Origin: a bacterium | Lineage (GTDB): Bacteria > Patescibacteriota > Gracilibacteria > BD1-5 > UBA6164 | Assembly: GCA_024635475.1 (NCBI GenBank) | Contig: JAGXIW010000008.1 | Coordinates: forward strand, 13,592 to 77,591 | DNA: 64,000 nucleotides | Direction of reading: 5' to 3' | Shown here: positions 282-41,979 of the stretch, piece after piece | How positions within the stretch are numbered: the stretch's first letter is position 1 | How the letters are laid out: every line of letters begins with the position of its first letter | Program-made: the position numbers and the translations under genes | Notes under the pieces: generated by a model | Database searches by the model: none | The model's input: the letters and a program-made list of their open reading frames with translations, nothing else | Told to the model about the DNA's origin: nothing

Positions 282-3200
282 TTAACTAATTATTTCTAAG
301 TTTATATCTTCGCTTGCCTTATTTCCTGAATTATCAATTGCTTCAATTTTTATTGTATGAGTTCATACTTCTAAATTTGTTCAAGAGATAGGGAAAACAA
401 AGCTTCTATCTGTTAATCATAGTTTTAGAGGTTTACCATCTATATAAATATTTATAGATTTTATTCCACCATTATCATCAACTTCTCATCTTAAATTAAA
501 TTCTTCTCAAGAATTATATAACTTGATACTTTTATCAATTGGATTTTTAATAGTTATTGTAGGGGCAATATTATCTTGATCCACGATTTCTATTTCTTTT
601 GTTTCATCTGCAGAATAATATTCACTATTAACAGCTCTTATCGTTATGTTATACACTCATTTGTAATTATCTGGAATTTCAAAAGTTCATTTATATGATC
701 ATTCATTTTTTCATAGTAGAGTAATTTCATCTATTTTTATTTCATCTAATAATATATTTATTTTAATTATAGGAGAATCAGATCTATAAGCTAACTCTAT
801 GTAATTCGTTCAAACTAATAATTGGTCTTTATCATTTATTTTTGAAGCTATTTTGATATTTCACATATCTGGAAATTCTTCTCTTTTACATATAGTATCT
901 TGAATTGTATCATCAGAATCAACCAATTCTCATAAAGTGTCTTTATATTTTCAGCTTTTAACCCATTCTTGTATTGGTCATTCCCATGCTTTATTTTCTG
1001 GAAACAGAGAATGAACATCAACAGTATAGATTTCTTTTATTCATGCTATTGGAGTTAATTCACTTATTTTTCAATTACATAAAGCATCTACTTTTATTGT
1101 TTTTAATCCAGTTCATTTTCACTCAGGCAGATTTTTAAACATAGATACATTCGTTAAATCTTCTCTAAATCATTCTTCCGTAGCATTTCAAGTCAATTTA
1201 GAAATTGTCATTGTTTTAACTCAAGAAGGCATTTTCCAATCCAATGCTTTTTTATCTTTATGAGCATAAGTCATAAAATCTCTCCAAATTGGTCAAGCTG
1301 CATTTAATCAATCTCAACTCATATTTACCTCTCTTCAATCAGTATTTCATACCCAAACTACAGTAGTAATTTGAGGAGTATATCATATAGTCCATAGATT
1401 TCTCGGCAGTTTTATTTTTTTACCATTTTTTTCATATTGTTTTGTTGAAGTACCAGTTTTTGCAGCCACTTTTCTACCTGAAATAGATATAAAGTTATTC
1501 CATCAAGCAGGTCTAGTTGAGGTATCACTAAGTATAGAATTTATTATATAAGCAGTTGCAGAATCTAAAACTTGTTCTTTTTTTGTTGTTTTAATTTTTT
1601 CTTCTATAATTACTCATTTAGAATCAAGTATTTTTAATATAGGAGTAATTTCTTTTTTCTCTCATAAATTAGCAAACACAGTGTAAGCTTTTGCCATTTC
1701 AAAAGGAGTAACTTCAACTGTTCAAAGTCAAATAGATGCTCCATATCTGCCATCATCAGCAATATTGTAAAATCAAAGTTTTGTAGCCAATTCAACAACT
1801 TTCTTTTCTCATCATCATAAGTATACCATTTTGATAGCAGGAATATTTCTACTATTATTTAATGCTGTTGATACATTCATAAGTCAGTTAAATTTTCAAT
1901 CAAAATTAGATGGAGTATAAGATCATGGGAAATTTGTTTGTAAATCAAAAATAGGAGTTTTTGATCAAATAGTATTAAAGTCTATAGCTTGAGCATAAAC
2001 AAAAGGTTTAAAACTAGATCAAGGTTGTAATTTTGATGTTATCATATTTACATTTCATCAATTTTCTATATCAAAATAGTCTTTTCATCATACCATAGCA
2101 AGTATTTCTCAGTTTATATTGTCTATACTTATTAAGGCATCATTATATGCACCAAATCTTTTGGCATTTGTTTCTCCATATTTTTCTATTAACTCTTCTG
2201 CTTTATTTTGTAATTTTGAATCTATAGTTGTATATATTTTCAATCAACCTGAATCCATAAATTCTTTACCATATTTTTTTTCCAGATATTCTTTTATATA
2301 AAGTACAAAATGAGCAGCTTTTATTCTTTCTTTATTTTTTTCAAATTTAAATCAAACTGATTGTATAACTGCTTTTTTATAATCATCAAATTTTATATAA
2401 TTATCTTCTAACATTCTTTGAAGAATAAAATCTTTTCTTCAAGTTTGATATTCTACAATTTTTCATCCATTATCTATTTGTATGCTATTTAAAAATTCAA
2501 GTAGTTTAGAATAATCAAACAAAGAACATCAATCTCCATCTATTATAAAAGAATTTTTTTTATGATTTTCTTTATTTATTCAACAAATAAGATTTGTATT
2601 ATCAGAAATCTTTTTTGATTTTAAATTATCTACATATTTTAAAAGAGGACTTATATCATTTGCATAAGTGAGTTTATCTTTTTCATTTAGGATTTTTATC
2701 TGATTTGCAGGTTCTTTTTTATCATATATATATACATAACCGAGTAATCTATCTGCATGTGTATAAGGGGAATAGTAAGAAGGTCATTTTGGTAAAGAAG
2801 CCAATATACTTGACTCTAATACTTCTAAATCTTTTGCTGATTTTCCAAAAAATGTCTTTGCTGCTTGTTCAATACCATATGAATTACTTCAAAAATCAAT
2901 TTTATTTAGGTATAATTCCAATATTTTTTCTTTTGATAAAGAAGAACTCAATTTATATGATAAATATATTTCTTTGATTTTTCTTTCTACTTTTCTTTCA
3001 CTTCAAATTAGAGTATTTCTTATTAGTTGTTGAGTTATAGTGGAAGTTCATTCAACTTTATCAGTTTTTCATAAAGCATAATAAACAAAAGCTCAGAGCA
3101 TTCTCTTTAAATCAACTCATGAATTTTTTAAAAAAGTCTTATCTTCTCAAGCGACAAGAGCATTCACCATATTTTTTGAAATGTTTTCATAATTTACATA

Positions 3201-3473
3201 AGTTCTATTTTCTTTATATATTTTATAAAGTTCATTTCAATCTCTATCATAAATAATAGATGATTTTGCCAAATTTAATTTTTCTAGGTCTTTTACATCA
3301 GGTAGTGGTAAAATATATTTTATATAAATTATTATTGTAGATAATAGTAATAATAAAGACAATCATATAATAGTATATAATCATATTTTTTTAAGTTTAT
3401 CTTTATTATCAAAAAAAGATTTATTTTTTTTATATTTTATAAAACCTGATGAATTATGTTTGAATCTGTTCAT
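282..3473 (-). CDS. Class A penicillin-binding protein (bifunctional glycosyltransferase/transpeptidase, PBP1A-like) with a long C-terminal extension
   Basis: With TGA=Gly the frame runs from ATG (complement of 3471-3473) to TAA (282-284), 1063 codons. It has an N-terminal TM helix, GT51 motifs (EDKTFLKNSGVD, GTSTITQQL, RKIKE, KEKILELYLN) and the transpeptidase SxxK motif (LQPGSSFKPFVY). The C-terminal ~300 aa look like beta-rich Ig-like repeats (...HTIKIEAIDNSGNKAS...). I translated 3473 to ~1950 and ~720 to 282 explicitly; the middle was not checked codon by codon. Confidence 0.85.
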
Positions 3474-3506
3474 AATAATAGTAATTAATTAATAATCAAG
3501 GAATAA

Positions 3507-3597
3507 TTGTCATTCTGAGTGATTAGCGAAGAATCCCTTAAGCGATGTTTAGTGTATTTATTAAGGTTAAAGGGATACTTCGTTATACCAGAGTATA
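3507..3597. repeat. Palindromic intergenic repeat element, copy 1 (GTCATTCTGAG...CGAAGAATCCCTTAA / TTAAAGGGATACTTCG)
   Basis: TTGTCATTCTGAGTGATTAGCGAAGAATCCCTTAAGC ... TTAAAGGGATACTTCGTTATACCAGAGTATAG. The left arm is near-identical to the copies at 5665-5700 and 45618-45708. The inner arms CGAAGAATCCCTTAA and TTAAAGGGATACTTCG are complementary. It is visibly GC-richer than its surroundings. Confidence 0.75.
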
Positions 3598-3630
3598 GTA
3601 ACATAAAACCTATATCCTATGTTCTACATT

Positions 3631-5055
3631 TTATTCTTCTTTCTCTTCTCAATTAAAATCTGTTATATCTTTTAAATCTTTTCATATAATTATCTCTATT
3701 TTTGTATTTGGATTTTTAGAATAACGAGGTTTCTCAATTTTTTCATATTTTCACTTAATAAAAAGTTTTAGAGCATCAAGAGTTTCTGTATTATCTCATA
3801 GATTATTATATAAAATAGTTGTTTGTTCATATAAAACTCAATCAGTATTTCAAATAGAATCTTTCTCAGGGATGTTAAAACCAAATTGTTGTAAATCATT
3901 CGCTAAGTATAAAGCTTGATTTGCTACTGGCATTGAATTAAAAATATTTATTTCTTGTTTATTAGTAAAAACTCAAGAGTAATTAAAAATAATATTTGAA
4001 AATCTCTGAATTTCGCCGTATTTTTCTAAACTATAATAACTGGCTCATCTAGGTATTACCACTGATGCTCATCAAAATTGTTCCATAGGAGGAGTATAAA
4101 GTATTCATCATACAGCACAAACAGAAGCTCAATAAACACAAGAATTATTTAAATTTAAAGAAATTATATTATCTTTATCTCATAGATCTTCAAAATCAGA
4201 AGCAATTTTTAAAATTCAATTCAGTCATATATCTGTTGTAAAATAAGGACTAATTGTATTATACATCTTTTTTATTTTTATAGGATTTTTAAAATATCCT
4301 TCAGAAATCATCTTTTCTTTAATTGCAGAAAGTATTTTATGTTGTCTAAGGGATCTATCAAAATCACTTGTAGTATGTCTACTTCTAGCATATTTTAATG
4401 CAGTTTCTCAATCAATTAACCAAGTTCACTTTTTTAATATAAAAGTTGTATATCATCAACTTGGAGTAGGATAAGTATAATCAGCTATACTTTCAGAAAC
4501 TTCTACTGTAACTCATCACAATAGATCAACAATCTGTTTAAATCATGAAAAATCTATATTTACATAATAATCTATTTTTTCTCAAGTAATTTGGCTAATT
4601 TTGTTTTTTAGATATTCCATAGCTTGATTTTCACCTTTTTCAGGAGACAGATAACTTGCATATATTCAATTTATTTTACCATACCTAGTATTATCATATT
4701 TAACATATAAATCCCTTGGAATTGATAACATTGAGATGATTTTTTTATCTAAATCAATCGATGCTAAAATTATAGAATCAGTCAAGTTTCAACCATTATG
4801 ATTAGCTCATCATCTTCAAACTAAAAGTATCTTTATTTTATTATCATCGCTTTGATTAGGAGTTATATCAAATTTAAAACTGCTTATTATGCTTCATAAA
4901 TTGAAATTGAAATCAAAGTTTTTTATATTTTTAACAATAGATATTCATAAAAAACATATGACTCATATAGATATAAATCATGTCAAAAAAAGTATGCTTT
5001 TTTTAAAATTCCACACAGTGGTCTTTATCTTTTTAGTTTTAAATCACACAGGCAT
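3631..5055 (-). CDS. LytR-CpsA-Psr (LCP) family cell-wall glycopolymer ligase
   Basis: 474 aa, ATG complement 5053-5055, TAA complement 3631-3633. N-terminal TM helix followed by LCP hallmarks: ILLVGRGGANHNGGNLTDSIILASID, SMLSIPRDLYV, YGKINGIYA, IDYYVNIDFSGFKQIVDLLGGVTVEV, ALKYARSRHTTSDFDRSLRQ. Confidence 0.85.
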
Positions 5056-6777: not shown

Positions 6778-7362
6778 ATGGAAAATTTTTTAAAAGAAAT
6801 TGTTAAATGAAATAAATTTGAACTTTTGATTGATAGTAATATATTTTCAAAAGAAATAGTATTAAAAGCTGCTTATAATTTTTTGGATAAAGGTTATTTT
6901 TTCTTTAAATTAGATAAAGATAATAATATAATTTTGCAGTTTACAGTAAAAGATGGAATAAAGGAATCTCCTGAAAGTATTATCTGAGATTTCTCAGATG
7001 AGATTTTATCTGTGTATTTAAGGGATAAATTAGAACATGATAATAAAGATATAAGAGAAAAAATAGTTTGAGCAGCAATTGCAAATAGTATAGATTCAAA
7101 ATGATTTACTCAATTTGATACTGATAGACAAGATAATCAGGAACAAAATCAAATAGATTTTGATAAAGATATAGATGAGATTTTGAGAGAAATAGAAAAT
7201 GATCCAGAATTAAAAATAGATGAAGAAGAAATAGAAAGAATACTTAAAGAAATAGAAGAAGAAAGTAATATGATAAATGATGATAAACCAATTATTAATT
7301 TAGATATGGATGCTATAAAAGAAGTAAAAGAAAAATTTAAGAAAGATAAAAAAAGTAACTAA
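6778..7362 (+). CDS. hxsD: HxsD-like small protein with an acidic low-complexity tail (His-Xaa-Ser system accessory protein candidate)
   Basis: 194 aa. The N-terminal ~110 aa (IFSKEIVLKAAYNFLDKGYFFFKL ... DEILSVYLRDKLE) resemble, from memory, the HxsD family (TIGRFAMs TIGR03976, LLNDYxLRE-type motif). The remainder is a D/E-rich tail. It lies immediately upstream of hxsB- and hxsA-like genes. Confidence 0.5.
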
Positions 7363-7386: not shown

Positions 7387-7584
7387 ATGTCAAAAAAAAG
7401 TTTAAAATTGGACAAAGAAATATACAATGAAGAAGTTATAAGACAAGCTATAGAAGATTTTAAAAATATAGCTTTTATAACTTACAAAAATTTTGAGATA
7501 ATAGTAGAATGAGAATGAGATTTAGAAGAGATTTTGAATGAATTTATGAACTATTGTTTAGGTTTGCAAAATGAATCAATTTAA
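7387..7584 (+). CDS. Second small HxsD-like protein (65 aa)
   Basis: MSKKSLKLDKEIYNEEVIRQAIEDFKNIAFITYKNFEIIVEGEGDLEEILNEFMNYCLGLQNESI. It has the same (V/I)xxAxxxF plus (I/L)LN(D/E)(Y/F) pattern as the preceding gene. Gene 25 bp after the previous stop and 23 bp before hxsB. Confidence 0.4.
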
Positions 7585-7607: not shown

Positions 7608-9143
7608 ATGTTTGATTTGGAAAAAATAAAAAAAATTAAAAGTGATAAAATATGATTTTTCAGATTCAAGAAATTTGATGAAAGTACATATCTTATTACT
7701 AATGATATAGCTAAGTATTCTTTTTTAACTAAAGAAGAATTTAATGATTTTATATCTTGAAAAATAGTTTCTTGAGTAAAATATGATGAGTTATTAGAAA
7801 GAAAATTTATAAAAGATGAAAAATATGAAACAGATATGTCTTTTGCTTATGCAAAGAAAAATAAATTTCTAGCATATTGACCATCTTTGCACATAATAAT
7901 TACAACACTTAGATGTAATCATAAATGTAAATATTGTCATGCAGCAGTAGCTCCAATGACAGCAACAGAAATGGATATGACGCAAGAGACAGCTAAAAAA
8001 GTAGTTGATACTATATTTTATACTTCATCAATAGATTTAACTATTGAATTTCAATGATGAGAATCTTTGATCAACTGGGATATTGTTAAATATATTGTAG
8101 AATATGCTGAAGTAAAATCTTTTCATTTGAGTAAAAATATAACTTTTGCTTTGGTAACTAATCTTACTTTGATGGATGATGAGAAACTGGACTATATATT
8201 GGCTCATAATATACATATTTCTACTTCTTTAGATTGAGATGAAGAGACTCATAATTATAATAGAACTTTTAAAAATGGTAATAGTTTTGAACAGGTAACT
8301 AATTGGATAAAAAAAATAAATGATAAATATGGTGAAATAGATTCTGTAAATCCTGATTTCAATTGAAAAATTATAAGAAAAGTGGGAGCATTATTAACTG
8401 TTACAAAAAAAACACTTTCAAAATATAAAGAAGTTATTGATACATATGTTTCTTTATGATTAGATTGAATATTTTTAAGACCATTAAATCCTTACTGATT
8501 TGCAGCTTCTGATATAGAAAAACTTTGATATACAAATGAAGAATTTATAGATTTTTACAAGAAATCTATGGATTATATAATTGAGTTAAATAAAAAATGA
8601 GTTGATATAAGAGAAAATTTATCAAGTATATATTTAAGTAAAATTTTAACTGATACAGATCCAAATTATCTAGATGAAAGAAGTCCTTGTGGTGCTTGTA
8701 TATGACAGGTTGCATATAATTATGATTGAAAAATATATAGTTGTGATGAATGAAGGATGTTTGCCCGTATGTGAGATGATAGTTTTTTAATGGCTGATAT
8801 TAATAATAGTGATTTTTCTGAATATCCATGACACGATACTTACAATAAGATGATAAATAGTGAAACAACAAAAACCATGGTTCAGGCAAGTACTCTAGAT
8901 TGATTGCCTTGATATAATGACAGTGTTTATAAGCCATACATCTGAGTATGTCCTATTCACTCATATAAGACTAGTGGTAATATTATTCCAAATTATTCTA
9001 AAGATTATAAAAAAATACTTGATTACGCTGTTTTGGATTATATATTTAATAAGCTTAGGGATAAAGAAATTTTGGATTATTTTAAAAAATGGATAGTTAG
9101 ACCGTGAGATGCTTCAGTTGTTAGTCAATGTGAAATTATTTAA
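7608..9143 (+). CDS. hxsB: Radical SAM/SPASM maturase, HxsB-like
   Basis: 511 aa. The N-terminal FRFKKFDESTYLITNDIAKYSFLTKEEFNDF is typical of HxsB as I recall it. rSAM motif LRCNHKCKYCHA (CxxxCxxC), IEFQGGESL, and a SPASM-type Cys cluster SPCGACIGQVAYNYDGKIYSCDEGR ... GVCPIHSY. Directly followed by the His-Gly-Ser repeat peptide gene. Confidence 0.75.
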
Positions 9144-9174
9144 ATAACTTAATTTAATATTTAATTTATATATT

Positions 9175-9567
9175 ATGTCAGAAGATAAGAAAAAATTGTT
9201 CCCAAAAATAAAAAAGAAATTAAAATGATTTCTTACAGAAGAAAGTGGTAAAATGAGCAAGAAAGATGCTTTATGATTAGGTGTTTGAGTGATGTTATTA
9301 AGTGTGATTGATGAGGTCGGGGCAACTAATCCTACAACAAACCACAGTAATAATCATACTAAATGTAATGTTTCAATGACAGCTGGAGCGGTAGTTAATC
9401 ATGCAAGTTCAATTGTAAATTGACATTATAGTGCGACTCCTGCCGCAAATGTTACTTTTTCACATGGATCACATGGAAGTCATGGATCACATGGATCACA
9501 TGGAAGTCATGGGAGTCATGGATCACACGGGAGTCATGGATCACATGGAAGTCATGGGCAGTGGTAA
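9175..9567 (+). CDS. hxsA: His-Xaa-Ser repeat precursor-like protein (HxsA-like); C-terminus is (Ser-His-Gly)x11 followed by Gln-Trp
   Basis: 130 aa: MSEDKKKLFPKIKKKLKGFLTEESGKMSKKDALGLGVGVMLLSVIDEVGATNPTTNHSNNHTKCNVSMTAGAVVNHASSIVNGHYSATPAANVTF(SHG)11QW*. ATG 9175, TAA 9565-9567. It sits between HxsB-like and HxsC-like radical SAM genes. Confidence 0.8.
9460..9558 (+). repeat. Coding 9-bp tandem repeat (11 units) encoding Ser-His-Gly
   Basis: Units are TCA/AGT CAT/CAC GGA/GGG. Ser codons alternate between the two codon families. All 11 Gly codons are GGA (8) or GGG (3), and none is TGA. Confidence 0.95.
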
Positions 9568-9591
9568 TTTTATTTTTATAAATAAATTTAA

Positions 9592-10290
9592 ATGAAAAAA
9601 ATATATTTTTGATTGAGTCTATTTATTAACCTATCTTTAGTTATTGTACTTGTTTTTAGTTTAATAAATAATAAAAATTCAAATAATTTTTGAACTTGAA
9701 TTAATGATAAATTTAATTCTTGAAATTTAAGTAAATCTTGAATTTTAATAAAAAATGAAATAAAAAATTTTTCTAAAGAAGAATTAGAAAAAGAATGTAA
9801 AAAGATTATTGATTGAAAAAAATCAAATTTCATTGAAAAAACAGAATTATATTCTTTATATAAAGATATTAATTTAGATAATTTAAAAAATAACAATGAA
9901 TATTTAGCTTTATTGAATTTGAAAAAATTAAATTGTGAATTTTTTAATTGAAATGATTATTATAAAACTTGTAATATTTTAAAAACAAATGATATTAAAA
10001 ATATTGATAATAATATAATAAAAGATGCTTATGGTAGAACATTATTAAAATCGATGATATTAGGTTTTAATAAATGTGATGAATTATCTAGTCAAAAAGA
10101 AAAGAAAGAATGTAATATATATTTTAATAATTATATTGATTTAGAAAAATTATATACATGATCGATAATATGATCATCGTCTGTTGAAGTTTGAAGAATA
10201 TTTAATGATTTGTGAGAAAAAATTTTTTTAGAAAAATTAAATAAGGAATTTATAGAAAAATGTAATAAATTAGATTTTTCAAAAGAATAG
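9592..10290 (+). CDS. Hypothetical membrane-anchored protein (232 aa) inside the Hxs cassette
   Basis: ATG 9592, TAG 10288-10290. N-terminal TM helix (FGLSLFINLSLVIVLVFSLI) followed by an Asn/Lys-rich domain with 6 Cys. No recognisable family. Confidence 0.6.
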
Positions 10291-10361
10291 AATATTTTCT
10301 AAATGTATTATTTTTTATAATATCAATAAAAAATGCTTTAAAATTAATAATTATTTAATAG

Positions 10362-11360
10362 ATGAAAAAAAATAATTTTCCATTTGAGCATATTACATTG
10401 ATTATGACAAGAGATTGTAATTTAAAATGTGAATATTGTTCACTTAATCATACAAAAATTAATATTACTAATGAGATATTAGACATATTTTTTAGGAAAA
10501 TAATTAAATATAATAATTATAATTTAAATATTACATTATTCTGATGAGAACCATTATTAAATAAAAAATGAATCGAACATATTTATGTACTATTGAAAAA
10601 GTATATGAAAGAGTTTATCGGGAATAATATTTTTATTTATTTGAAAATTCCTTCAAATGGGACCTTATTAAATAATGATTATATAAAATTATTTAATAAG
10701 ATAAAATCTTTAAATTTTATAAATTTATCATTTAATATAAGTATTGATTGAGATAAAACAACTCAATTAAGACAAAGAAATTATGCAAAAAAAAATTTAG
10801 ATTATTATGAAATTTTAAAAGAAAATATAAAAATGTTGGTTCTGAATAATTTTGATGTTGAATTATCGACTGTATTAGCTTTTTCTAATGATAATTTTTT
10901 TGATGATATTGTTTATTTGATTAAAAAATTTAAATTACCAATTTTTCTAATGCCTATGCAATTAACATCAGGTTATATTGTTGAATGTGAAAATATAAAT
11001 AACCATATAAAAAAATATTTAATAAATATTGAAAGAACACTAAAATTAATAAAAATAAATAAATTAGATAGATTCATTATTAATTTTTCTTCTTATGTTG
11101 ATGTTGTAACTCCTTCAATTGGTCCTACAGTTGATGTAAATGGTGATATTTATACGACTAGATCATTTATGTTTTCTCTTGATAGAAGTGAAAAATTTTT
11201 TAAAATTTGAAATATAAAAAAAATGGATTTAGTTAATTATTTTATAGATAATGATATAAAAAAAATTGAATTTGAAAGTTTTAAATTATTTTATTGAAAA
11301 ACATTTTTGATCAATAAAAGTATTTGAGACTTTTTTACTAATTTAATTTATAGTAAATAA
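10362..11360 (+). CDS. hxsC: Radical SAM protein without a C-terminal Cys cluster, HxsC-like
   Basis: 332 aa. TRDCNLKCEYCS (CxxxCxxC), LFGGEPLLNK, later GPTVDVNGDIYTTRSF. No SPASM/twitch cysteines, as expected for the second rSAM of an Hxs cassette. Its stop overlaps the next start (TAATG). Confidence 0.65.
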
Positions 11361-12271
11361 TGAAGAGACTTGAATTTCATATATCATATATATGCCAACA
11401 TAAATGTATTTTTTGTAGTGAAGCAGATAGAATGGATAATTTTAAAAATTATCCATTATCTTTATTGCAAATAAAAACTATTTTGATAGATAGAATGAAA
11501 AAATGATATAATCATGTTAATTTTACTGGTTGAGAACCTACTATTACTCCATGATTTTTAGAATTACTCAAATTTACGAAAAAACTTTGATATAAAATAT
11601 ATGTTTGAACAAATTGAGTTATGTTTTATTCTGAAAAATTTGCTAAAGAATCTTTAAAATATATAGATGAACTATCTCTATCTGTTCATTGGTATTCATT
11701 AAATACATGTTGAAAACAGATTTGATTGAAATATCACTTTAATAATTTTCCTATTATTGTTAATAATATCGAAAAATATAAGGCTAATAATAATTTTTTC
11801 TTTTTAAATATAGTTATAAATAAATATAATTATTTTGATACTGAAAAGATAATAAATTTTGTTATAGAGACATGATATGATTTTAAACAAGTTTTAGTAT
11901 CAAATATTGCCCCTGAATGAAGTGCAAAACATAATTATATTGATATTGTTTTTGATTTAAATGAGTTTAGGAATTATATTCCAAATATAATAAAAAAATG
12001 TAATGATAATTGAAAAATACTTAGATTTTTTTGATTGCCTACATGTATTTTAGAAGAAGACTTTATTGAGTATTCAAATGATGAACATTGGGAAGAAAGA
12101 CACACAATAGAAAGATTTTTGAATAAAAATTGAAAAGTATCATTAATAGATATTTATTCTCCAGATAATTCAAGAGAAAGGACATTTGTAGATAAATGTA
12201 ATAATTGTAAATGGAAAAAAAATCCTTGTACTTGAATTTTTAAAAAATATTTAGATTTTTATGAATTTTAA
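11360..12271 (+). CDS. Radical SAM protein with C-terminal CxxCx6CxG auxiliary-cluster motif
   Basis: 303 aa. ISYICQHKCIFCSE, KKGYNHVNFTGGEPTI, KKLGYKIYVGTNG, and C-terminal DKCNNCKWKKNPCTG. Paralogue of the 13192-14133 gene. Confidence 0.8.
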
Positions 12272-13210
12272 ATGGAATTAATATATATATTAACTTATAA
12301 TTGCAATTTTCGTTGTAAATATTGTGATATAAATAAACATGTCAATAATATTTCAAAAAAAGTTATAGACCAAAGTTTGATATTTTTGGAGAAAAATAAT
12401 TTTAATATAGAAAAGGTAAAATTTTTTGGTTGAGAACCATTATTGAAAAAAGATTATATAAAATATATTGTGACTAATTTTCCGAAAAATGTTAAAAAAA
12501 ATTTTTATATTACTACAAATGCAACTTTAATTGAAGAAAATTTTATGTTATTTGCTAGAAATAACAATATAAAATTAACATTTAGTATTGATTGAAATAG
12601 TAAAACTATTTGAATCAATAGAATTACGAAATGATGAAAAGATTTATCAAATATTATTATAAAAAACACAAAAAAATATAATGATTTTATAAGAATAAAT
12701 CAAGTTATTACTTCAAATAATTCTAAGGATTTTTTTGCTAATTTTAAATTTATATATGATTTATGAGTTAGAAAATTTAATTTTTTACCAGAATATTATT
12801 CTGAATGGTCAAAACAGTGATTAAAAAATTTAAATAAGTGATTTAATGAAATTTTTAATTTTTATAAGGAATGAAATCAATTTGAATTAGTAAATTTAGA
12901 AAATTATTCTAATATTTCATTTTTTAATCTATGATTAATAATAGATACTGATTGAAGTATTTATTGAACTAATTTAATTTTATCTTGAGTATTTGAAAAA
13001 TATAAAAAAGACTTAATATTATGAAATATTTTTTCTGAAAATTATATTAATTTTCAAGATGATGACTTTATTAGGAGTTACATAGATAAAACTTGAAATA
13101 TTTTAGAAATAGAATATAGTAAAAATATATTAAATTCAGTAAAATACGTAGATTTAATGTTAAATAATTTTTGTAATAAAATGTACTTTTTATGGAATAT
13201 AAAAGATTAG
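12272..13210 (+). CDS. Radical SAM protein, second HxsC-like paralogue (no C-terminal Cys cluster)
   Basis: 312 aa. TYNCNFRCKYCD, FFGGEPLLKKD, GLIIDTDGSIYGTNLI (compare GPTVDVNGDIYTT in the 10362 gene). Its start is 1 nt after the previous stop, and its 3' end overlaps the next gene by 19 nt. Confidence 0.75.
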
Positions 13211-14133
13211 AAATATATGTTTGATGGACATGTAATCATAAATGTACATATTGTAAAGAATATCCAAATATGGAAATACTTTGGAATAAAAAGGTTACAA
13301 AATATGACATATTAAAGTTACTAATAAAATATAAGAAAAAATGATATAATCATGTTAGTTATCTTTGATGAGAACCATTTATTCAACCTGTGTTTTTAGA
13401 TGCATTAAAATTGTGAAAAAAACTTTGATATACTATATTGGTTACCACAAATTGTTCAACACTTCATATAGATAATCAAGCTAGTAAATTTTTACCATAT
13501 ATAGATGAGTTAATATTATCTATTGAAGCTATAGATAAAGAAAAACAGCAAATTATATCTAGAACAAAAAATTATGTCATTTGGGATAAAGTTTTTGATA
13601 ATATAAAAAAGTATTGGAATTGAAAATTGTTTAAAGCAAATATTGTTATAACTAAAGATAATTTAAAAGACCTTTTCTTAATAGTATCTTTTTGTATTAA
13701 TAATAATTTTAAGGAAATAGCAGTAACTTACCCAGATATAGATTTAGATTATTATGGAAAAAAACATATTTTAAATAAAGTTGCTCCAAAATATTCAGAT
13801 TGTGTGAATGAAATAATAAATATAGTTAATTTATGTGAAATAAATAAAGTTAATTTGAAATTACCAGATTTTCCTTTTTGTGTTTTTCCAAAAAAAGATT
13901 TAGAAAAATATATATCGTTAACTGATGATTACGATTATCAAACAAGGCTAAATATTTTTCAAAATACAATAGAATTTGATAGGTGAGATTTAAAAACAAC
14001 AGAGGAGATTCCTAGACAAAGATCTCATTTAAAATGATGTTTATGATGTATATATATTAATTTATGCTGGGGGGTATCTATATATTATAAAAAATTATAT
14101 TGACTAGATGAAATTAATCATATAACAAAATAA
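13192..14133 (+). CDS. Radical SAM protein with C-terminal CxxCx5CxG motif
   Basis: 313 aa. VGWTCNHKCTYCKE, KKGYNHVSYLGGEPFI, KKLGYTILVTTNC, and C-terminal LKGCLGCIYINLCWG. Confidence 0.8.
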
Positions 14134-14136
14134 ATT

Positions 14137-15159
14137 ATGTGAAAAAAATATAATGATTCAAAGATTTACATTAATGAAATAATTAGAATTACTTATAAAT
14201 GTAATTGGAAATGCAAGTTTTGTAATGTTTTTAAAACAAATAATTTTTGAGAAAAGGATATAACAGTTAAGGAAGTAATTTATCAAATTTTAAATTTAAC
14301 TAGGAAATATACTAAAGAGCAAAGAAAAAATCTTATACTATCATTTTCATGATGAGAGCCAACACTAGATAAAAATTTATTTACTTATATTAGATTAGCA
14401 AAAGGTATATGAATATGAATTATTCAAATTCAAACAAATTGAACCATTTTATTTAAACATAAAACTTATATAGACAATTTAATTGCAGTATGACTTGATG
14501 AAATATTTTTAGCTCAGCATTCATCAGATGTTGATATAAATAATAAATTGGGAATTTATTACAATATAAAAGATTTTATTAATTGGGTAGGGGGTATAAA
14601 AAAAAATGGAATATATAAAAAAATTTATATATGATTTAATATTGTTATTACAAAAATAAATTTATTCCAGATTTATGATTATTTAAATTTTCTATTAGAA
14701 GTAGGTTTTTTATGAATTTTACCAAAAATAGTAAATTGACAAAATCCTATTTCTTTTTGATTAGTCCAACCTAATTGATATGCAGAGATTAATAAAGAAG
14801 AAATTTTACTAAAGTACAACGATGATGAATTGAATGAAATAAATAAAATTATAGATTTTTGTAAAGAAAATAATATATATCCAGATTTCCATTTTACAGC
14901 ACCACCATTATGTATTTTAAATTATCCTGAATATAATTTAGAATATAAAAGATCATTAAATTTAGAAGAAGATGTTAAAAAATGAATAGTTAATGAATGA
15001 AATTTAGAATCATTTAAATCTTTAAGAAAAGAGAAACAAAAATTCAAAGAATGTGATAAATGTAAATATAATAATTATTGTTTATGATTTTATAAAAACT
15101 GGATTAGCTTTATTTGAGAAGACTATGTAAAAGAAAAAATTAATAATTTTATAAAATAG
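14137..15159 (+). CDS. Radical SAM protein with C-terminal CxxCx5CxG motif
   Basis: 340 aa. ITYKCNWKCKFCN, LSFSGGEPTL, IQIQTNGT, and C-terminal KECDKCKYNNYCLGF. Confidence 0.8.
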
Positions 15160-15164
15160 TATTT

Positions 15165-16520
15165 ATGATTAATATAAAACAATTATTAAATAAAATACTT
15201 ATTTCATCAGATGTTTATTTTTTTACTATCGATTATTTATTTAGAAAGATAGTAATATTTGCCTGAAAATATATTTTAGAATTTTCTTTAGTTGATAAAT
15301 GATGAAGTATAAAACAAAGTAAATATTTTTATTTCTTTTTAAGAAAAATAGATGATATAGATAATATTTATAATTTTTTAAATTCAGATAATAAAGTTAT
15401 TTCAAATAAAAATATTTGAGAAATAATAAATATCATAATTAAAAATGAGGAATTAATATATCATATATTTTATGGTGAGTGTGAAGTATTTTATGAAAAA
15501 ATATTCAATAAGATAAAAATAAATAAAAATATATTATTTATATTAAAGTGATGATGAATGGAAGAGACTATAGAGAAATCTTTTATTTCATATTGTAATA
15601 ATTCAAATATAAAATTAACTGTTTTATATAAATTTTGAACCTGATATTGGGGGCAAAAACTTAATCAAGATTGATTTTTTAATGAATTAAAAGTTAATAA
15701 TAAAAATGTTAAATTTTTATATAATGAGGATTTTAACGATGAATTTATAGATTCTATGGTTAATGAAAATACTGAGATTTTTTCTTTTCAATATGATTAT
15801 AAATGAATATATAAAGATTTTAATATGATAGTATTATCAAGTGTTACTGATAAAAATATAGATTGTTCTAGGTATAAAAATGTATTTTCTTGTTATCAAA
15901 GTAAAACTATATGATATAGTACAGATAAATTTATAAATATTGAAAATACTAAAGTTTATAAGATATTTAATCCACAAAATATAGATTTATTAAATAATTA
16001 TTCTGTAATTAAAAAGGTACCAAATTTTATTTTATCTTGATGAATGTCATGGGCAAGAGATTTTTCTATATTAAATTCTTTAGAAGGTAAATATAAATGA
16101 ATATTAGTAAGTGATGAAATTCATGAAGTAAAGAATTTTTTATCTATGTATAGATGAATTCAAAGTTATTATTGATTTTTAGGTGTTTTTAAATTATCAA
16201 GTTTTTGAGTTTTTTGTCATCTTGAAAAATTTAACGATGATGATAGAAGTAAAATGATAGCAACATCTATTTGTGCATGAAAACCTGTTATTGTTCCACA
16301 TAATGATTGATTAATTGTTAAGGAAATTATTGATAACAAATTAGGACTTGTTTATAGAAATTGAGACATAGAAGATTTACAAAAAAAAGTTATGTTTTTT
16401 GCTGAAAATAAGGATAATATAGAAGAATATTCTAAAAGATGTTTAAGTTATTCAAAAGAACAAATGGATATTAATAATTTTATAAATTTTATTTTTGATA
16501 AAGCTTTTATTGATGAATAA
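15165..16520 (+). CDS. Glycosyltransferase-like protein (GT-B / GT1-type C-terminal domain)
   Basis: 451 aa. The C-terminal ...DRSKMIATSICAGKPVIVPHNDGLIVKEIIDNKLGLVYRNGDIEDLQKKVMFFAENKDNIEEYSKRC follows the EAxAxGxPVI...G...E.I....G.L pattern of GT-B sugar transferases. The N-terminal half is unrecognised. Its stop overlaps the next start (ATGAATAA). Confidence 0.45.
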
Positions 16521-18162
16521 ATTCGAACAAATAATATTAAAAATATTAAATACAAATTTTTCTAGTTCAACTATAAAATGCACTTATTTATATAATGAGT
16601 TTTTTATAAGTATGTCCAAAACCTGAGAATTTGTTTTGCTTTGAATATCTTATAAATCATCAAAAATACAAATAAATAAATATAAATGAGAAGATACTAG
16701 AATTTGAAAAATACTTTTAATTTTGCTCAAAAAATATGAAGAGATATTTTTAAATTATTTTAAAATTAAACAAAAAACTATTTTTAATTTATGAGAAGAA
16801 TCAGAGTTTATAAATATTTTTGATAAAAAAGAATTAAATTATGAAAATATAGAAGAAAAACTGTATTTTAGTTTTTTAGATGATTATTCTTATAGAAGAA
16901 GGAGTGAAATGAGTTTTAATATAGAAGAAAAATCCATTATTGATATATACCATAGCGATTTTGAATGTTCTAAATGTGCTTGACCTAGGGAAGCATTTAC
17001 AAATTTTATTGATTATCATAATCATGAGGTATGTTTAGAAAAATCTTTTCGAGCAAGTGAAAATAATACAAAAAAAATTAATTTATATACAAATATAACA
17101 GATTATGAATCTATAACTATTTGATGAAATGCTAAGATAGATGAAATATTACAAAATATAGAATTAATAAATGAATATGATATTATTTCTATTAATAAAA
17201 CTTGTATATCGGTAATTATGTGAGATGACATAGAATCAATTCTAAAGCATAATAATATTTCTAAAGAAAAAACTATTTATACTGATCAAAATACTGATAG
17301 TTGATACAGAGTAATTATAAATTATTTAAAGACTTTAGATATTTTAAAAGTTTCTAAAAATAATGAATTAGTATTCTTTTGACTTAATAAAAATAAAAAT
17401 ACTTTTGAATTAATAAAATTTTTACAAAATAATTTTTGATTACAAGTTTGAAATGTATTATTACCAAATATAAATAAAAAAGATTTAGAAAATATTTTAA
17501 GATATAAATTAGCTGTATTTTTTATTGGTAGAGAAACAAAAACTCAAAATATATTTAAACTATATCCTATAGATAATCTTGAAATTAATGTTCCATATGG
17601 TATTTCTAAAACTTATGAGTTATATGAAAGTATACTTTTAAATTATTGATTAGAAGAAGAAAAATTAAAACTAAAGAATATTTTTAATGAATTGAGAGAA
17701 AAAAATATAGAACTTTTTAATAAATCAAAAAAATATAACATATGATTTATTATTCATGACTTTCATATAAAACAGTTTTCACAAGATAATTTCAGAGGAT
17801 GTTCTATAATATCTATGTTGAACGATATGGGATTTCATTTAAATTTTTTTATTTATCTTGCAAGTGATAAATCAAAAGAAGATATAATTGAATTCAATGC
17901 AAAAAATGATTTATACAATTTTTATACAATTATTTCAAATAAAAAAGCAGATTTAGATAAATTTATAAATGATGAAAATATACAAATCTATTATTCAGAG
18001 ATTTCAAGTGATTCAAGGATTATATCAAAAAATAAATGACAATTTTCAGTTTGAGATTTAGAGTATTGAATAGATTGATTTTATAGAAGTTTGGAATTGC
18101 TTATAAAAAAATGTGAAAAGGTTGATTATATGAATTCAAAATTAAATTATTATTTAAAATAG
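16513..18162 (+). CDS. Nitrogenase component-1-type oxidoreductase family protein (NifD/K / BchN/B-like), long subunit
   Basis: 549 aa. ...KTCISVIMGDDIESILK (the C..IGDD motif of the family), LAVFFIGRETKTQNIFKLYPIDNLEINVPYGISKTYELYESIL, and C-terminal GQFSVGDLEYGIDGFYRSLELLIKKC (the vGY.G...l pattern). About 170 aa of N-terminal extension have no match. The call is weaker than for the next gene. Confidence 0.55.
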
Positions 18163-18166
18163 TTTT

Positions 18167-19369
18167 ATGGATATAATAGAAAAATATACTCAAATTTATG
18201 GAAGTCCTTTTTTGACTTGAGTTTTTATGTGAGTTAATGCTATAAAAGATGTTGCATTATTTGTTGATGGGCCAGATTGCATATTTTATAAGGCTGATAT
18301 GTTATATAAAACTCATGATTTATGATCTAGTCTTAAACAAGCAAGTATTGATACAAAACTATATTTCTCATGAGTTATGCCAAATAAAATGGTAAGATGA
18401 TATGATGAAGATATAAAAAGAAAGTTATCTTTCATTGAAGAAAATTCAAAATTTAATCTTTGAGTTGTTACTTGTATGCCAGTTACTTGATTACTTGCTA
18501 CTCAGTATGATAATATATATGGAGATTTAAATAAAGATTTTATTTTTGTCCCATCCCATACAGATAAATTTCGGCTAGATTGATATAGTATATTTTTGAA
18601 AGAATTAGCAAAATATATAAAACTTGATGAGAAAAAAGAAAAGAAAAAATTAAATGTATCGATAATTTGATACCTTTTTGATAGGAATGAATGAGACTGT
18701 ATTTGAAATTTAGAAGAAATAAAAAGAATACTTAATCTAATCTGAGTAGAACTAAATTCTATATGGCTTAGTTGATGAGATTTAAAAGATTTATCTAATA
18801 TAGAAAACTCAGAACTTATTATTTCTTTTCCTTATGGATTCCAAGCTTCAAAAATTATATCAAGAAGACTTAATGTAGATATTTTAGAGTTAGATATTCC
18901 TTTTTGATTTGAGAATACTATAAATTTTATTGAAAAAATTTGAAAAAAATTATCTATAGATAAAATAAAAATAGATAGTGTTTTGAAAAAAGAAATTACT
19001 TTTGTAAAAGAAAAAATAGATTTACTTAATGAAAAAGTTTTTTTAAACAAAAATTATATATTTGCCTGAGATCCTTTTATGGAAAAGTCTATAAAAGATA
19101 TTTGAGATTTCTTTTGAATGAATCATATATTTACATATAATTATAATTGATCTAAAAAAGCAAAAGAAACTGATTTTGATAAAAAAAATGTAGATTTAAT
19201 TATAGGAAATTCAGAATTTAATTTGAGTTCAGAGTTTAAACTAGAGTTTTGATTTCCATCTTACAATACGCACTTTTTACTTGAGAGACCTTATATGTGA
19301 TTCAGATGATTATTATTTTTTATTGAAAGATTATATCTTGAAATGACTAAATTAGATAAATTAAATTAA
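18167..19369 (+). CDS. Nitrogenase component-1-type oxidoreductase family protein (NifD/K/E/N / BchN/B-like), short subunit
   Basis: 400 aa. GVNAIKDVALFVDGPDCIFYKADM (HGPxGC-type cluster Cys), LGVVTCMPVTGLLATQYD, VSIIGYLFDRNEGDCIGNLEEIKRIL, ELIISFPYGFQASKIISRRLNVDILELDIPFGFENT, EFGFPSYNTHFLLERPYMGFRGLLFFIERL. Confidence 0.7.
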
Positions 19370-19375
19370 AAAAAT

Positions 19376-20194
19376 ATGAAAAAAATAGTGATTTATGGTA
19401 AATGATGAATAGGTAAATCAACAACTTCAACTCATTTATCTGTGGCATTTGCTAGCAAATGATTAAGAGTTTTACAAGTATGATGTGATCCTAAACATGA
19501 CTCTTGTAAAAGAGTATTAAGTTGAGTTAGAGATATTCCTACAGTTATTGAGTTATCAAAAGATAGAGATATATATGAGTTTACAAAAGATTTAATTATT
19601 CATAAATGAAGATTTTGAATTGATTGTATAGAAGCTTGATGACCGATTGCTTGAATTGGTTGTGCTGGTAGAGGGATATCACTTATGTTTGAAATATTTG
19701 ATGAAATAGGCTTACTTGATGAATCAAATTATGATGTAGTTATATTTGATGTACTTTGAGATGTTGTTTGTTGATGATTTGCATCACCTATAAAGGTTGG
19801 TTTTGCTGACCAAGTTTATATTGTACTTTCAGAAGAAATAATGAGTTTATATGCAGCTAATAATATATCAAAAGCAATTGTGAATTATCACAAAAATTGA
19901 GTTTGATTATCTTGAATTATCTTGAATTTAAGAAGTAATGAAAGTGATGTAAAAGTAGTTGAAGATTTTTCTAAAAGTTTATGAACAGAGATAGTTTGAA
20001 TTATGAATAGATCAGATTGAATTTTGCAAGCGGAAAGAAAAAATATGACTTTATACGAATTTGATAGTAATCATATAGATTTACAAAAATATAATAAATT
20101 AGCAGATTTTATGTTAAAAAATGAGAATAAAATTATTCCTATTACTTTTACAGATAGAGAATTTGATGATTTTATTTATGATAAATTTTATTAA
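19376..20194 (+). CDS. NifH/BchL/CfbC-family ATP-dependent [4Fe-4S] reductase component
   Basis: 272 aa. KIVIYGKGGIGKSTTS (P-loop; both central Gly are TGA at 19403-19408), VGCDPKHDS (switch I), GIGCAGRGI and LGDVVCGGFA (the two cluster-ligand Cys), [17 protein letters not shown]. Confidence 0.9.
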
Positions 20195-20242
20195 TAAAAT
20201 TAAGTTAAGTATTATTTAAATTATTTACTTTATTATTGTTTT

Positions 20243-20968
20243 ATGAAATATTCACCTAATATATATAAATATATTTCAGAAGATATATCAAATGCATTTC
20301 GTTATGGATTTAAAGAGTGAGAATATGAAGCAAATAAATCTCATGTTAAAATTACTGAAGATAAAAAGTTTGAGATTATTGAATTTGATGATTATTTTGA
20401 AGTAAATGGTTATTTAATAGCGAAAGAAAATTTTTGAGAACCTTGTTCTCCAAATGTTCAAAAAAATCCAGTAAATATAGATAAAGGAGCTCCACAGGCA
20501 TGGATGTATACTATAGATGATGATTCAGTATCAGGTGATGGTAAATATAGATGATTCGAATTATTTAAATATACATTTCCACGGATTAATATTTCAAAAA
20601 CCACAGCAATAAATCAAAATATATATCCAGCTAATTTTTGGGTATACAATTCTATATGAGCAATTATAGAAGGAGAATATCGTTGAGTAAGAATTCCAGA
20701 GAATTGGGAGCTTTTAAATTTAATAAATTCTATTCCTTGAAATTGTATTGAAAAAGCAAAATCTTTACAGATACCATTCATTGGATTTCGTAGTACTGAT
20801 AATAGTGGAAAAATTCATTTTCTTTGAGAATGTGCATTTCTTTTATCTTCAGATCATTTTGCAAATGCTGGTGAACGTAATTTACGTCTTTTTAGATGAG
20901 GAAATAAAGCAATTGGTGATTGGATTGACTGTGGTCGTTGAGCTTCTGTGCGTTATTTTCTAAAATAA
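20243..20968 (+). CDS. FISUMP-like (Fibrobacter succinogenes major paralogous domain-like) protein
   Basis: 241 aa. The C-terminal GVRIPENWELLNLINSIPG...IPFIGFRSTDNSGKIHFLGECAFLLSS...CGRGASVRYF matches the G.hlPs..EW..L ... G.r...G ... g.SVRC pattern of TIGR02145 as I remember it. Confidence 0.45.
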
Positions 20969-21005
20969 ATAATTAATATAAAAGTTTTTAAATTATATAT
21001 AAAAT

Positions 21006-21974
21006 ATGAAAAAACATATAGAGATAAATATTTGAAAAGCATGTAATAATAAATGCAGATTTTGTATGAGTTCTCAATATGCAATAAAACGAGTTTGAGA
21101 AACTTTTTGATTAGTAGCTTTTAATTTAATAAAAAAAGAAATTAAAACATATGCTATTAAATGATATAAATCAATTTGATATATTTGATGAGATATTTCT
21201 ATTCATCCAAATATTTATGAAATTATAGAAAAATCAAGAAAATATTGATTTGAAAATATATCAATTATTACAAATGCTATGGTATTTTCAGATTATAATA
21301 AGGCAGAGAAATTAATTTTATCTTGAACAACTAGAATAAATATATCTATTCATTCCCATAATTGTAATATAGAAGATTATATCACTCAAATAAATTGATG
21401 ATTTGAAAAGAAACTATTAGCTATTGATAATTTTAATAAATTATATAACCATAAAGTTTTAAAAAATCCAATAAGTATAAATATAGTTTTAAATTGATTG
21501 AATTATAAAGATATAACAAAAACTTGTTTATACTTTTATAAAATTAAGAATATAAAAGATATAAGAATAAATTTTTTATGGAATAGATTTTTTTTCTCTG
21601 AAGATGATAAAAAAAAATTAGAATTAAGTTATACAGAATTTTTACCTTATTTAAAAGAATTAATAATATTTTCAATAAAAATAAACCTAAGAATAACATT
21701 TGATGCAATTCCAGCTTGTGTTTTTCATAAATTAGGATTTAAAAATCATAATTTTATAATTAGAAAATTTTTATGAGAAGAATTGGATTATATAGATGAG
21801 GTTTCTAATATAAATATGGATGTAAAATTTAATTGGAAAGAACAAAAAAGAAATGAACTAAAAACAAAATTTGATAAATGTAATGATTGTTTATATTCAA
21901 ATAAATGTCAGTGAATCTGGAAAGAATATGTTAAAAGATATTGAGAAGATGAATTTAATGCTATTTTATTTTAG
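21006..21974 (+). CDS. Radical SAM protein with C-terminal CxxCx5CxG motif (tandem paralogue A)
   Basis: 322 aa. INIGKACNNKCRFCMS, KGYKSIGYIGGDISIHPN, ITNAM, RINISIHSH, and C-terminal DKCNDCLYSNKCQGIWKEY. Confidence 0.8.
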
Positions 21975-22120
21975 AAATATCAACATAACTATTTTTTCTT
22001 GAAATGTTGTTAATTATGATATAACAAGAATACTAGATTTACAATTTATTTAAAAATTAGTTATTACATCTAAAATAGATGATAATAGTAACTTGAAAAA
22101 TTTAAATTATTGTAAAATAG

Positions 22121-22153
22121 AAAAATAATTTATAAAAAAATAAATTATTTTTT
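22121..22153 (+). terminator. Weak all-A/T hairpin followed by a T-run inside the 280-bp gap of the cluster
   Basis: AAATAATTTA (22123-22132) pairs perfectly with TAAATTATTT (22141-22150) around an 8-nt loop, followed by TTT. The stem has no G/C, so terminator function is uncertain. Confidence 0.3.
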
Positions 22154-22254
22154 AGGAGAAAATAGATATAATGATCAAGAAAATTATAATATAATAAGAA
22201 ATTATTATGAAAAAAATTTTAGCATAAGATTAATTTCATATAAAATATTACATC

Positions 22255-23214: not shown

Positions 23215-23228
23215 TTTTACTAAAGAAT

Positions 23229-24857: not shown

Positions 24858-24922
24858 TTTAAAAATTACGGATAATAAATTAATAGCAAGTAAATTAAAA
24901 ATTAAGTAATTATTCAAATATA

Positions 24923-26191: not shown

Positions 26192-26198
26192 AAAAATT

Positions 26199-41570: not shown

Positions 41571-41960
41571 TTACTTTTTTGGCCTCAAATAAACCAATAA
41601 ACCAACATATGGTATCAACATTATCATCTCAACAACAGTTTGTATTTTTTTCCCTGGTGCACCAAGTTGAGCAAAATCTATTTTCAAGAGAAATCCAATC
41701 ATAAAAATAATTGCAATAATTCCACCAATAATAATTACATTAAGCGAGTCAATATTTTTAACGGGATCCTTGGCAATGGAAAGTAATAATAATGAAATGA
41801 CTATCGCAGACACTGCTATAATAGAATCGTGATAGGGATGATATAATGCACCATCGTAAAATGGAAAAAGTGTAAGTCCAAAAAGGTGAGCCATTGCTCC
41901 AACTAAATAATATAGAGCACCGAGAATTAATAATAACTTAAGAGTTTTGATTTTATCCAT
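41571..41960 (-). CDS. Hypothetical integral membrane protein (129 aa)
   Basis: Uninterrupted ORF even under the standard code. 4 predicted TM helices, 10 Gly codons with none TGA, TAA stop. GC-richer than the host genes. Confidence 0.6.
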   Translation of the reverse strand: MDKIKTLKLLLILGALYYLVGAMAHLFGLTLFPFYDGALYHPYHDSIIAVSAIVISLLLLSIAKDPVKNIDSLNVIIIGGIIAIIFMIGFLLKIDFAQLGAPGKKIQTVVEMIMLIPYVGLLVYLRPKK

Positions 41961-41979
41961 ATTTTCTTTTTTTATTAAA

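Follow-up and report, generated by a model that had tools for sequence, protein, structure and literature searches.

The hxsA-type gene and its tandem array

We analyzed a stretch of 64,000 nucleotides (nt), hereafter the window, from a bacterium of the Gracilibacteria order BD1-5 (family UBA6164; assembly GCA_024635475.1, contig JAGXIW010000008.1, forward-strand positions 13,592 to 77,591). The gene under study is an hxsA-type open reading frame (ORF) whose protein ends in 11 tandem Ser-His-Gly units. TGA is the dominant Gly codon of this genome, yet it encodes none of the 11 Gly residues of the array. This is one case of a tendency, not of an absolute rule, that runs through the order: compared with the leaders of the same genes and with neighboring genes, such arrays use TGA about five times less often. 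The ORF, its parts and the hxs genes directly upstream are listed here by window position (aa, amino acids; SAM, S-adenosylmethionine; TRF, Tandem Repeats Finder).

6778..7362, + strand: hxsD, 194 aa; TIGR03976 57.7 bits (cut-off 50); TGA at 4 of 6 Gly
7387..7584, + strand: hxsD-like small gene, 65 aa; NF038315 49 bits (cut-off 41)
7608..9143, + strand: hxsB, radical SAM maturase, 511 aa; TIGR03978 491.4 bits (cut-off 370), Pfam Radical_SAM; TGA at 22 of 27 Gly
9175..9567, + strand: hxsA-type ORF, 130 aa and a TAA stop, translated under table 25
9175..9270, + strand: conserved Lys-rich N-terminal leader, aa 1-32, with a TGA codon at aa 18
9271..9309, + strand: hydrophobic segment LGLGVGVMLLSVI, aa 33-45, read from the sequence; the small-residue stretch DEVGA comes next
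9397..9432, + strand: NHASSIVNGHYS, aa 75-86, a conserved motif preceding the array (homologue comparison)
9460..9558, + strand: (SHG)11 tandem array of a 9-nt unit, preceded by Phe, with its Gly residues at aa 98-128 (translation, TRF)
9559..9567, + strand: C-terminal Gln-Trp and the TAA stop (translation)

The hxsA-type ORF begins 31 nt after the end of hxsB. Translation under table 25 reproduced the layout given in a first-pass annotation of this DNA, namely a Lys-rich N-terminus, a hydrophobic segment, a linker rich in His, Asn and Thr, and finally F-(SHG)11-QW; under table 11, positions 9175-9567 (+) contain four in-frame TGA codons. The first 35 residues are strongly conserved among 49 hxsA-type proteins, and within the leader consensus ...KKKIFPKIKKKLKGFLTDESGKITKKDALGL the consensus residue is present in at least 70% of these homologues for most columns. 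Homologues also have the hydrophobic segment followed by small residues, an arrangement that may represent a signal peptide or membrane anchor. The linker between the hydrophobic segment and the array contains NHASSIVNGHYS, and a motif of this type, H[AS]S..[VI][NS]GH, occurs in 28 of the 49 homologues. After the array, the proteins of loci L041-L149 end in RW (21), GQW (7), Y (7), RR (4), AAY (3) or GGWC (3), so that the type ending in W is the commonest; the GGWC tail goes with short HSS-type arrays.

The HxsA-like identity proposed at first pass held up. The protein scored 60.9 bits against NCBIfam HxsA4 (NF038313, cut-off 55) over aa 62-130, a narrow pass owed largely to the low-complexity repeat, and the genes for HxsB, HxsD and the HxsD-like protein lie directly upstream. 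Its leader (aa 9-79) matched HxsA3 (NF038309) at 42.9 bits, under the cut-off of 65, making the protein a hybrid match with an HxsA4-type C-terminal part and an HxsA3-type leader. No further HxsA model of NCBIfam matched at E <= 0.01, and the only Pfam match, to Collagen on the repeat, stayed below threshold. Nine homologues showed the same hybrid matching, three of them passing the HxsA4 cut-off and none that of HxsA3. With the gene order hxsD, hxsD-like, hxsB, hxsA, the ORF encodes an HxsA-type protein, the substrate or effector in an Hxs-like radical SAM system.

The array can be read as 11 S-H-G units or as 10 complete H-G-S units in register. Its Gly codons are GGA (eight) and GGG (three), whereas TGA supplies four of the eight leader Gly codons (aa 18, 34, 38 and 83), the others being GGT (aa 25 and 36), GGG (aa 49) and GGA (aa 71); the four TGA codons of the leader and the absence of TGA from the array agree with the first pass. 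Ser is encoded by TCA six times and AGT five times, the two codon families already named there. The GC content is 0.49 in the array, 0.33 in the leader and ~0.24 in the genome. The count of 11 units rests on the assembly: Logan contigs from the two DNA runs in which this DNA occurs end within the array near 9516-9540, and are identical to the window there. No RNA dataset was listed as containing the stretch, and the single RNA run of the same study had none of it.

Gly codons in a genome with genetic code 25

The assembly comprises 1.35 Mb in 8 contigs with ~24% GC and is 93% complete. Every gene of the region contains in-frame TGA codons, and ARAGORN found one tRNA-Gly(UCA) and one tRNA-Gly(UCC) among 31 tRNAs. 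Release factor 2 (RF2) was not found above cut-off in this 93%-complete assembly, the best match to the family reaching 242 bits against a cut-off of 370. Comparison of homologues places TGA at Gly positions: each of the two invariant Gly residues of the HxsB GGE motif is encoded by TGA in 45 of 50 sequences, and the X position of the H-X-S units is TGA in some homologues where others carry GGN. We conclude that TGA encodes Gly (code 25), and in-frame TGA at Gly, the tRNA-Gly(UCA) and the failure to find RF2 above cut-off are shared with the code 25 of Gracilibacteria/Absconditabacteria.

In 1038 ORFs of at least 120 aa, called with our own crude ORF caller, TGA accounted for 18177 of 25029 Gly codons (72.6%), followed by GGT (12.1%), GGA (11.4%), GGG (3.1%) and GGC (0.8%). 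The first-pass statement that TGA is dominant, with 15 of the first 18 Gly codons of atpD (window 59881-61284), proved exact; over the whole gene the count is 30 of 44. If codons were independent, 0 of 11 would have a probability of 6.5e-7. A genome-wide tally of Gly codons had been proposed at first pass as a check. Of 15185 windows spanning 11 consecutive Gly codons, 37 lacked TGA, so that such a run is rare, yet it is not unique, since there are 10 runs of at least 11, the hxsA array among them.

Some genes are nearly without TGA, both in the window (41571-43200, - strand) and elsewhere (L001-L010), such as an MFS transporter in which TGA makes up 2 of 27 Gly codons and a 129-aa ORF in which it makes up 0 of 10. 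Our first guess that TGA-poor genes would be housekeeping or highly expressed genes was wrong. The poorest are of accessory type instead: a CopA-type ATPase, the MFS transporter, a pentapeptide-repeat protein, a Nudix hydrolase, and secreted hypothetical proteins or paralogues. The TGA fraction may thus mark recently acquired genes in code-25 genomes.

TGA is depleted in the arrays of the order

HxsB scored above cut-off in 1 of 401 genomes sampled across the phylum (the present one), in 30 of 401 across the class and in 92 of 204 across the order, where median HxsB identity is 57%. An Hxs-like radical SAM system is therefore widespread in this order of bacteria that read TGA as Gly. A search with the leader through 5.8 billion proteins returned nine relatives, the sole named one being a hypothetical protein of a Candidatus Gracilibacteria bacterium. 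We scanned 110 HxsB loci from the class in six frames under table 25 for ORFs with at least three tandem H-x-S units, which yielded 63 arrays in 61 loci, with the array ORF next to HxsB; the other 49 loci had no array by this pattern. At least five of these 49 have related ORFs of other kinds: GGWC-tailed short forms (L049, L052), Hint-domain fusions (L063, L064) and an N-masked array (L041). L063 and L064 come from two genomes of a single genus; in both, the ORF that follows hxsB (~2909-3835 in each) joins a His/Gly/Ser-rich region to a C-terminus that, judged by eye, resembles a self-cleaving domain of Hint/intein type and ends in ...VHNA.

Arrays with fewer than three repeat Gly residues were left out of the counts (L050, L068, L074, L083 plus strand, and L107), leaving 58. 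One of those left out, L074 (G903, contig C31), has the top HxsB model score (557.7 bits), an hxsB without TGA, a mixed HSS/HAS/HYS/HRS array and neighboring genes with 1 of 33 TGA. This locus resembles a canonical Hxs locus of the standard code and may lie on a foreign contig binned into the genome.

We call a locus TGA-dominant if its neighboring genes use TGA for at least 60% of Gly codons, which holds for 34 of the 58 arrays; the other 24 are TGA-minor. The TGA counts for the 34 TGA-dominant loci are as follows.

Arrays: 43 of 296 Gly codons (14.5%)
Leaders of the same genes: 419 of 600 (69.8%)
Neighboring genes: 1258 of 1587 (79.3%)

The TGA fraction of the array was below that of its own leader in 31 of the 34 loci; 19 arrays were free of TGA, and in four it was the majority codon. 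The 24 arrays from TGA-minor loci had 8.3% TGA against 34.3% in their leaders. After pooling of loci by HxsB identity, from which one more array was left out since its HxsB was not in the alignment, the array lay below the leader in 40 clusters and above it in 4 at an identity of at least 80%, and in 14 versus 1 at 70% or more; pooling at 60% or more leaves just two clusters. The remaining Gly codons of the arrays follow the order GGT > GGA > GGG > GGC and so resemble the local background, such that arrays look like that background minus TGA.

The depletion is confined to the array and starts sharply at its boundary. In the 15 codons directly before the arrays, 73% of Gly codons are TGA. Conserved leader Gly residues (ESGK, NGH, ALG) are encoded by TGA in 63-74% of cases in TGA-dominant loci and in 13-30% in TGA-poor loci; in particular, the Gly of the motif before the array (aa 83) is TGA in the window and in 23 of 31 TGA-dominant homologues. 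Over classes of array length, the pooled TGA fraction fell from 0.28 to 0.15 to 0.10; the per-array Spearman rho was -0.03 (p = 0.85).

The first-pass claim of complete TGA avoidance stands as a tendency and fails as a rule. Within the genus, where hxsA genes share ~60% of residues and use the same codon for 54-58% of the identical ones, TGA makes up 0/11, 8/8, 3/10, 3/27, 1/8 and 1/13 of array Gly codons. TGA is thus tolerated in the repeat, as its use by some sister genomes shows, and its complete absence characterizes the array of this particular lineage. The comparison with sister genomes had itself been suggested at first pass; four repeats made entirely of TGA were found, one of them in the same genus, and the preference for GGN is still general.

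The array evolves in concert

Coding tandem repeats can undergo concerted evolution, and the same tRNA can be reused at successive codons. In the window array, the 9-nt unit (70% matches) was outscored in TRF by longer periods of 18 nt (79%) and 27 nt (84%), and units 1-3 are almost identical to units 4-6. The array is thus a tandem repeat of a 9-nt unit that undergoes concerted evolution through the duplication of blocks. At first pass, the two Ser codon families had been taken to mean that the units are not recent slippage copies and that the protein repeat is under selection. These periods speak against the first part; the second is borne out, since HGS is kept in 58 arrays of differing codons.

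Because blocks are duplicated in this way, a single array varies little in its Gly codon, and the 11 Gly codons of the window array should be counted as one or two events instead of eleven. Gly codons run uniformly or in alternation through the arrays, and heterogeneity among the 34 arrays (chi2 = 163, 33 df) shows them to be far more uniform internally than binomial; this excess uniformity is the signature of concerted evolution and accounts for their all-or-none look. They have repeatedly switched among GGT, GGA and GGG, even within genera, and mixing among these three is commoner than mixing with TGA. Neither concerted evolution nor tRNA reuse alone predicts which codon class wins, and autocorrelation of tRNA class is weak genome-wide. 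As a separate observation, adjacent Gly-Gly pairs used the same tRNA class in 58.7% of cases versus 62.9% expected from within-gene shuffles (z = -3.6), meaning that TGA and GGN were mixed more, while pairs three codons apart showed the opposite trend, with the same class in excess (z = +4.1).

On population-genetic grounds, neutral homogenization should leave the expected codon frequency where mutational equilibrium puts it. Gly sites that occur as single copies in these genes track the local background, and we read them as equilibrated. Given that neutral homogenization keeps the mean, that these sites are equilibrated and that the arrays have switched often, a directional force against TGA in the homogenized array is needed.

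What may remove TGA from the arrays

The reading we favor combines concerted evolution with a directional force against UGA inside the array, a force that is probably related to decoding; we give it a probability of roughly 0.45. Array units would be homogenized by block duplication, leaving a near-uniform Gly codon per array, and the force would then remove UGA from the homogenized part. Selection linked to decoding is the likeliest candidate for that force, as UGA is read by its own tRNA-Gly(UCA) and behaves as a non-preferred Gly codon in elongation factor Tu (EF-Tu; G000 C5:5131-6324), where TGA accounts for 16 of 40 Gly codons (40%) and GGT for 18 of 40, with CAC, TAC and TTC raised as well. 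Although EF-Tu prefers GGT, no tRNA-Gly(GCC) turned up in the set of 31 tRNAs from this 93%-complete assembly; its gene may have escaped assembly, or else GGU is read well by tRNA-Gly(UCC).

The first pass had offered a need for fast or accurate decoding as an explanation, and the EF-Tu codons agree with this possibility. Many observations, however, weigh against a decoding-related force, and they are collected here. Codon-pair context does not reproduce the deficit: elsewhere in the genome TGA is used in 8 of 12 H-G-S occurrences, at 171 of 265 Gly codons after His (64.5%) and at 1028 of 1475 before Ser (69.7%). Local Gly density is largely rejected, as TGA stays at ~70% with 5-6 Gly per 15 codons and falls to 47% only with seven or more (n = 104). 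Accuracy at critical residues fares no better, given that invariant HxsB Gly columns are 78.5% TGA versus 75.7% for variable ones; TGA is not avoided at the conserved leader Gly residues either. The 25 ORFs around rplB have 74% TGA. The Ser codon TCT makes up 9% in arrays versus 24-33% otherwise, the opposite of EF-Tu (7 of 9 TCT), and the window array uses GGA and GGG, not the GGT favored in EF-Tu. The leader, on the same mRNA, is just mildly depleted of TGA, and a decoding cause leaves unexplained why the effect is restricted to this array. Intact arrays made up entirely of TGA exist at L046 (8/8, same genus), L131 (5/5), L140 (4/4) and L058 (4/4), and L111 has 8/13. TGA occupies the last Gly unit in 11 of 34 arrays but only 26 of 228 interior units (Fisher p = 0.003), an excess that fits DNA-level homogenization at least as well as translation. 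Finally, the genomes are related and not independent observations, so that p-values overstate independence; the baselines in other genomes cover only ~4.8 kb around hxsB per locus, and array copy numbers in metagenome assemblies are uncertain.

A cause at the level of DNA or RNA that is tied to the repeat, in which the meaning of the codon is irrelevant, draws on several of the same data and is an unlikely but serious competitor. It could take the form of biased slippage, heteroduplex repair favoring GGN units, selection for array stability or avoidance of a CAT-TGA motif. Such a cause would suit a deficit that is strongest in the interior, homogenized units and weaker in the last, the finding that the lone TGA of single-TGA arrays sits in the last Gly unit in five of seven, the two-fold enrichment of the His codon CAC in arrays (18% versus 7-9% in leaders and HxsB) and the negative outcome of the decoding tests on context, density and conservation. 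Yet tandem repetition as such does not exclude TGA in this genome, where other coding repeats use it freely (52 of 55 at C7:1924-3534, and 6 of 6 in a 9-nt-period array at C6:77305), although short-period arrays are few and the test is weak. General GC gain or biased conversion is not a consistent fit either: CAC is up, but GGG, GGC and AGC are not enriched in the arrays. Moreover, TGA-bearing 18-nt blocks have been amplified in L060 and L070.

Neutral concerted evolution combined with history is likewise a serious competitor, slightly less probable still. Here, one or two GGA units would have been amplified by slippage, making the 0/11 of the window a single chance event, and the order-wide deficit would reflect a GGN ancestor that has not yet equilibrated. 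A GGN founder unit is not unlikely, because GGN makes up 27% of Gly codons genome-wide. The higher-order 18- and 27-nt periods, the nearly all-or-none state of the arrays and the all-TGA arrays, one of them in the same genus, are all compatible with such a history, as is the relatedness of the loci, of which two clusters remain at an HxsB identity of at least 60%. However, the mean codon frequency should then have stayed, and instead 31 of 34 arrays lie below their leader, with 14 clusters versus 1 at 70% or more. There has also been time enough to equilibrate, because leader Gly codons, conserved ones included, track the local baseline in TGA-dominant and TGA-minor lineages alike, and arrays have often switched among GGT, GGA and GGG, within the genus too.

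Recent acquisition of the cassette, or of its core alone, from a standard-code donor unable to carry in-frame TGA was also raised at first pass and is very improbable: although the TGA-poorest genes here are of accessory type, low TGA can mark foreign origin and canonical HXS lives in Pseudomonadota (consulted portion of PMC13128918), the hxs neighborhood is not TGA-poor (hxsB 22/27, hxsD 4/6, downstream ORFs 43-94%), the leader of the same ORF holds four TGA codons and homologues keep baseline codon use up to the array (73% TGA in the last 15 codons), 92 of the order's 204 genomes share the system at a median HxsB identity of 57%, and the only named protein among the nine found with the leader is from Candidatus Gracilibacteria.

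If the force is indeed related to decoding, UGA may still be a second-class Gly codon, with reading by tRNA-Gly(UCA) slow or error-prone enough in long His-Gly-Ser arrays for selection to purge it, a proposal we hold tentatively and with more doubt than confidence. In the consulted portions of two papers on code 25, UGA is treated simply as an additional Gly codon (PMC8629427, PMC4032931), and a local, family-wide UGA deficit within one repeat type is not mentioned in those portions. Our literature searches, which covered papers without their supplements, returned none describing an array-confined UGA deficit. Among the results we drew on from the same papers, proteomics of a related bacterium with UGA as Gly gave 3 peptides with UGA read as Trp versus 97 with UGA read as Gly (PMC4032931), and Shulgina and Eddy pointed to possible wobble ambiguity around UGA and UGG (PMC8629427).

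Once a new tRNA is in place and the release factor has disappeared, codon reassignment is usually deemed complete, and yet dozens of genomes in which 70-80% of Gly codons are UGA use it about five times less in one short protein repeat. Were decoding the cause, the arrays would make the remaining cost of a captured stop codon directly accessible, be it speed, fidelity or tRNA supply, a cost that is otherwise hard to measure in uncultured bacteria; His-Gly-Ser arrays would then serve, across the order, as a natural reporter of how far the captured codon has been naturalized. Were repeat dynamics the cause, they would offer a clean case of directional bias in concerted evolution.

A variant Hxs system within a radical SAM island

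According to the consulted portion of Li et al. (Nat Commun 2026; PMC13128918), canonical HXS is an antiphage system of Escherichia coli and other Pseudomonadota that has the gene order HxsD-B-C-A, requires HxsC, processes HxsA at its N-terminus and exports it, and protects against phage by blocking DNA entry. Set against that portion, the system of the window has in common an HxsB-type radical SAM enzyme, a small HxsD and a tandem His-Xaa-Ser protein, and the leader and hydrophobic segment of that protein can be compared with the processing and export of canonical HxsA. In contrast, the order here is D, D-like, B, A, and HxsC (TIGR03977, cut-off 267.9) was not above cut-off anywhere in the genome (best 86.3 bits; best ORF in protein scans, 100.9); HxsC4 (NF038332) reached at best 126.9 against a cut-off of 500. 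The HxsA-type protein, with 130 aa and 11 uniform H-G-S units, is much smaller than canonical HxsA, and a Pfam search found no canonical domain in it. We infer that the system, common as it is in the order, is a distinct variant of Hxs in which a defense function can be proposed only by analogy. By the same analogy, HxsB, HxsD and a candidate second radical SAM enzyme would modify and process the protein, which would then be exported.

Downstream of hxsA, twelve ORFs have 43-94% TGA, nine of them 73% or more. The island of radical SAM genes to which hxsB belongs (7608-27143) contains eleven radical SAM ORFs in a genome of 1.35 Mb. The features downstream of hxsA are as follows.

9592..10290, + strand: 232-aa ORF with an N-terminal hydrophobic segment; TGA at 11 of 13 Gly
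10362..15159, + strand: five tandem radical SAM genes, Pfam Radical_SAM in all five
16495-19369: two NifD/K-like genes within the island
19376-20194: NifH-like gene, 280 bits to nifH, below cut-off
21006-23214: two radical SAM ORFs
23229-24857: HemN/HemW-like radical SAM ORF
24923-27143: two radical SAM ORFs

The 232-aa ORF at 9592..10290 had no NCBIfam or Pfam match. The five tandem radical SAM genes are tentative candidates for the role of the missing HxsC, with a best HxsC (TIGR03977) score of 73.8 bits against the cut-off of 267.9. The island also includes a glycosyltransferase-like gene. Just past it lie conjugation/type-IV-secretion-like ATPases at 28104-30539 (+) and 32735-34636 (-); one of the two is a weak TraD-like match, and the other is VirB4-like, of the CD1110 family (345 bits, cut-off 325).

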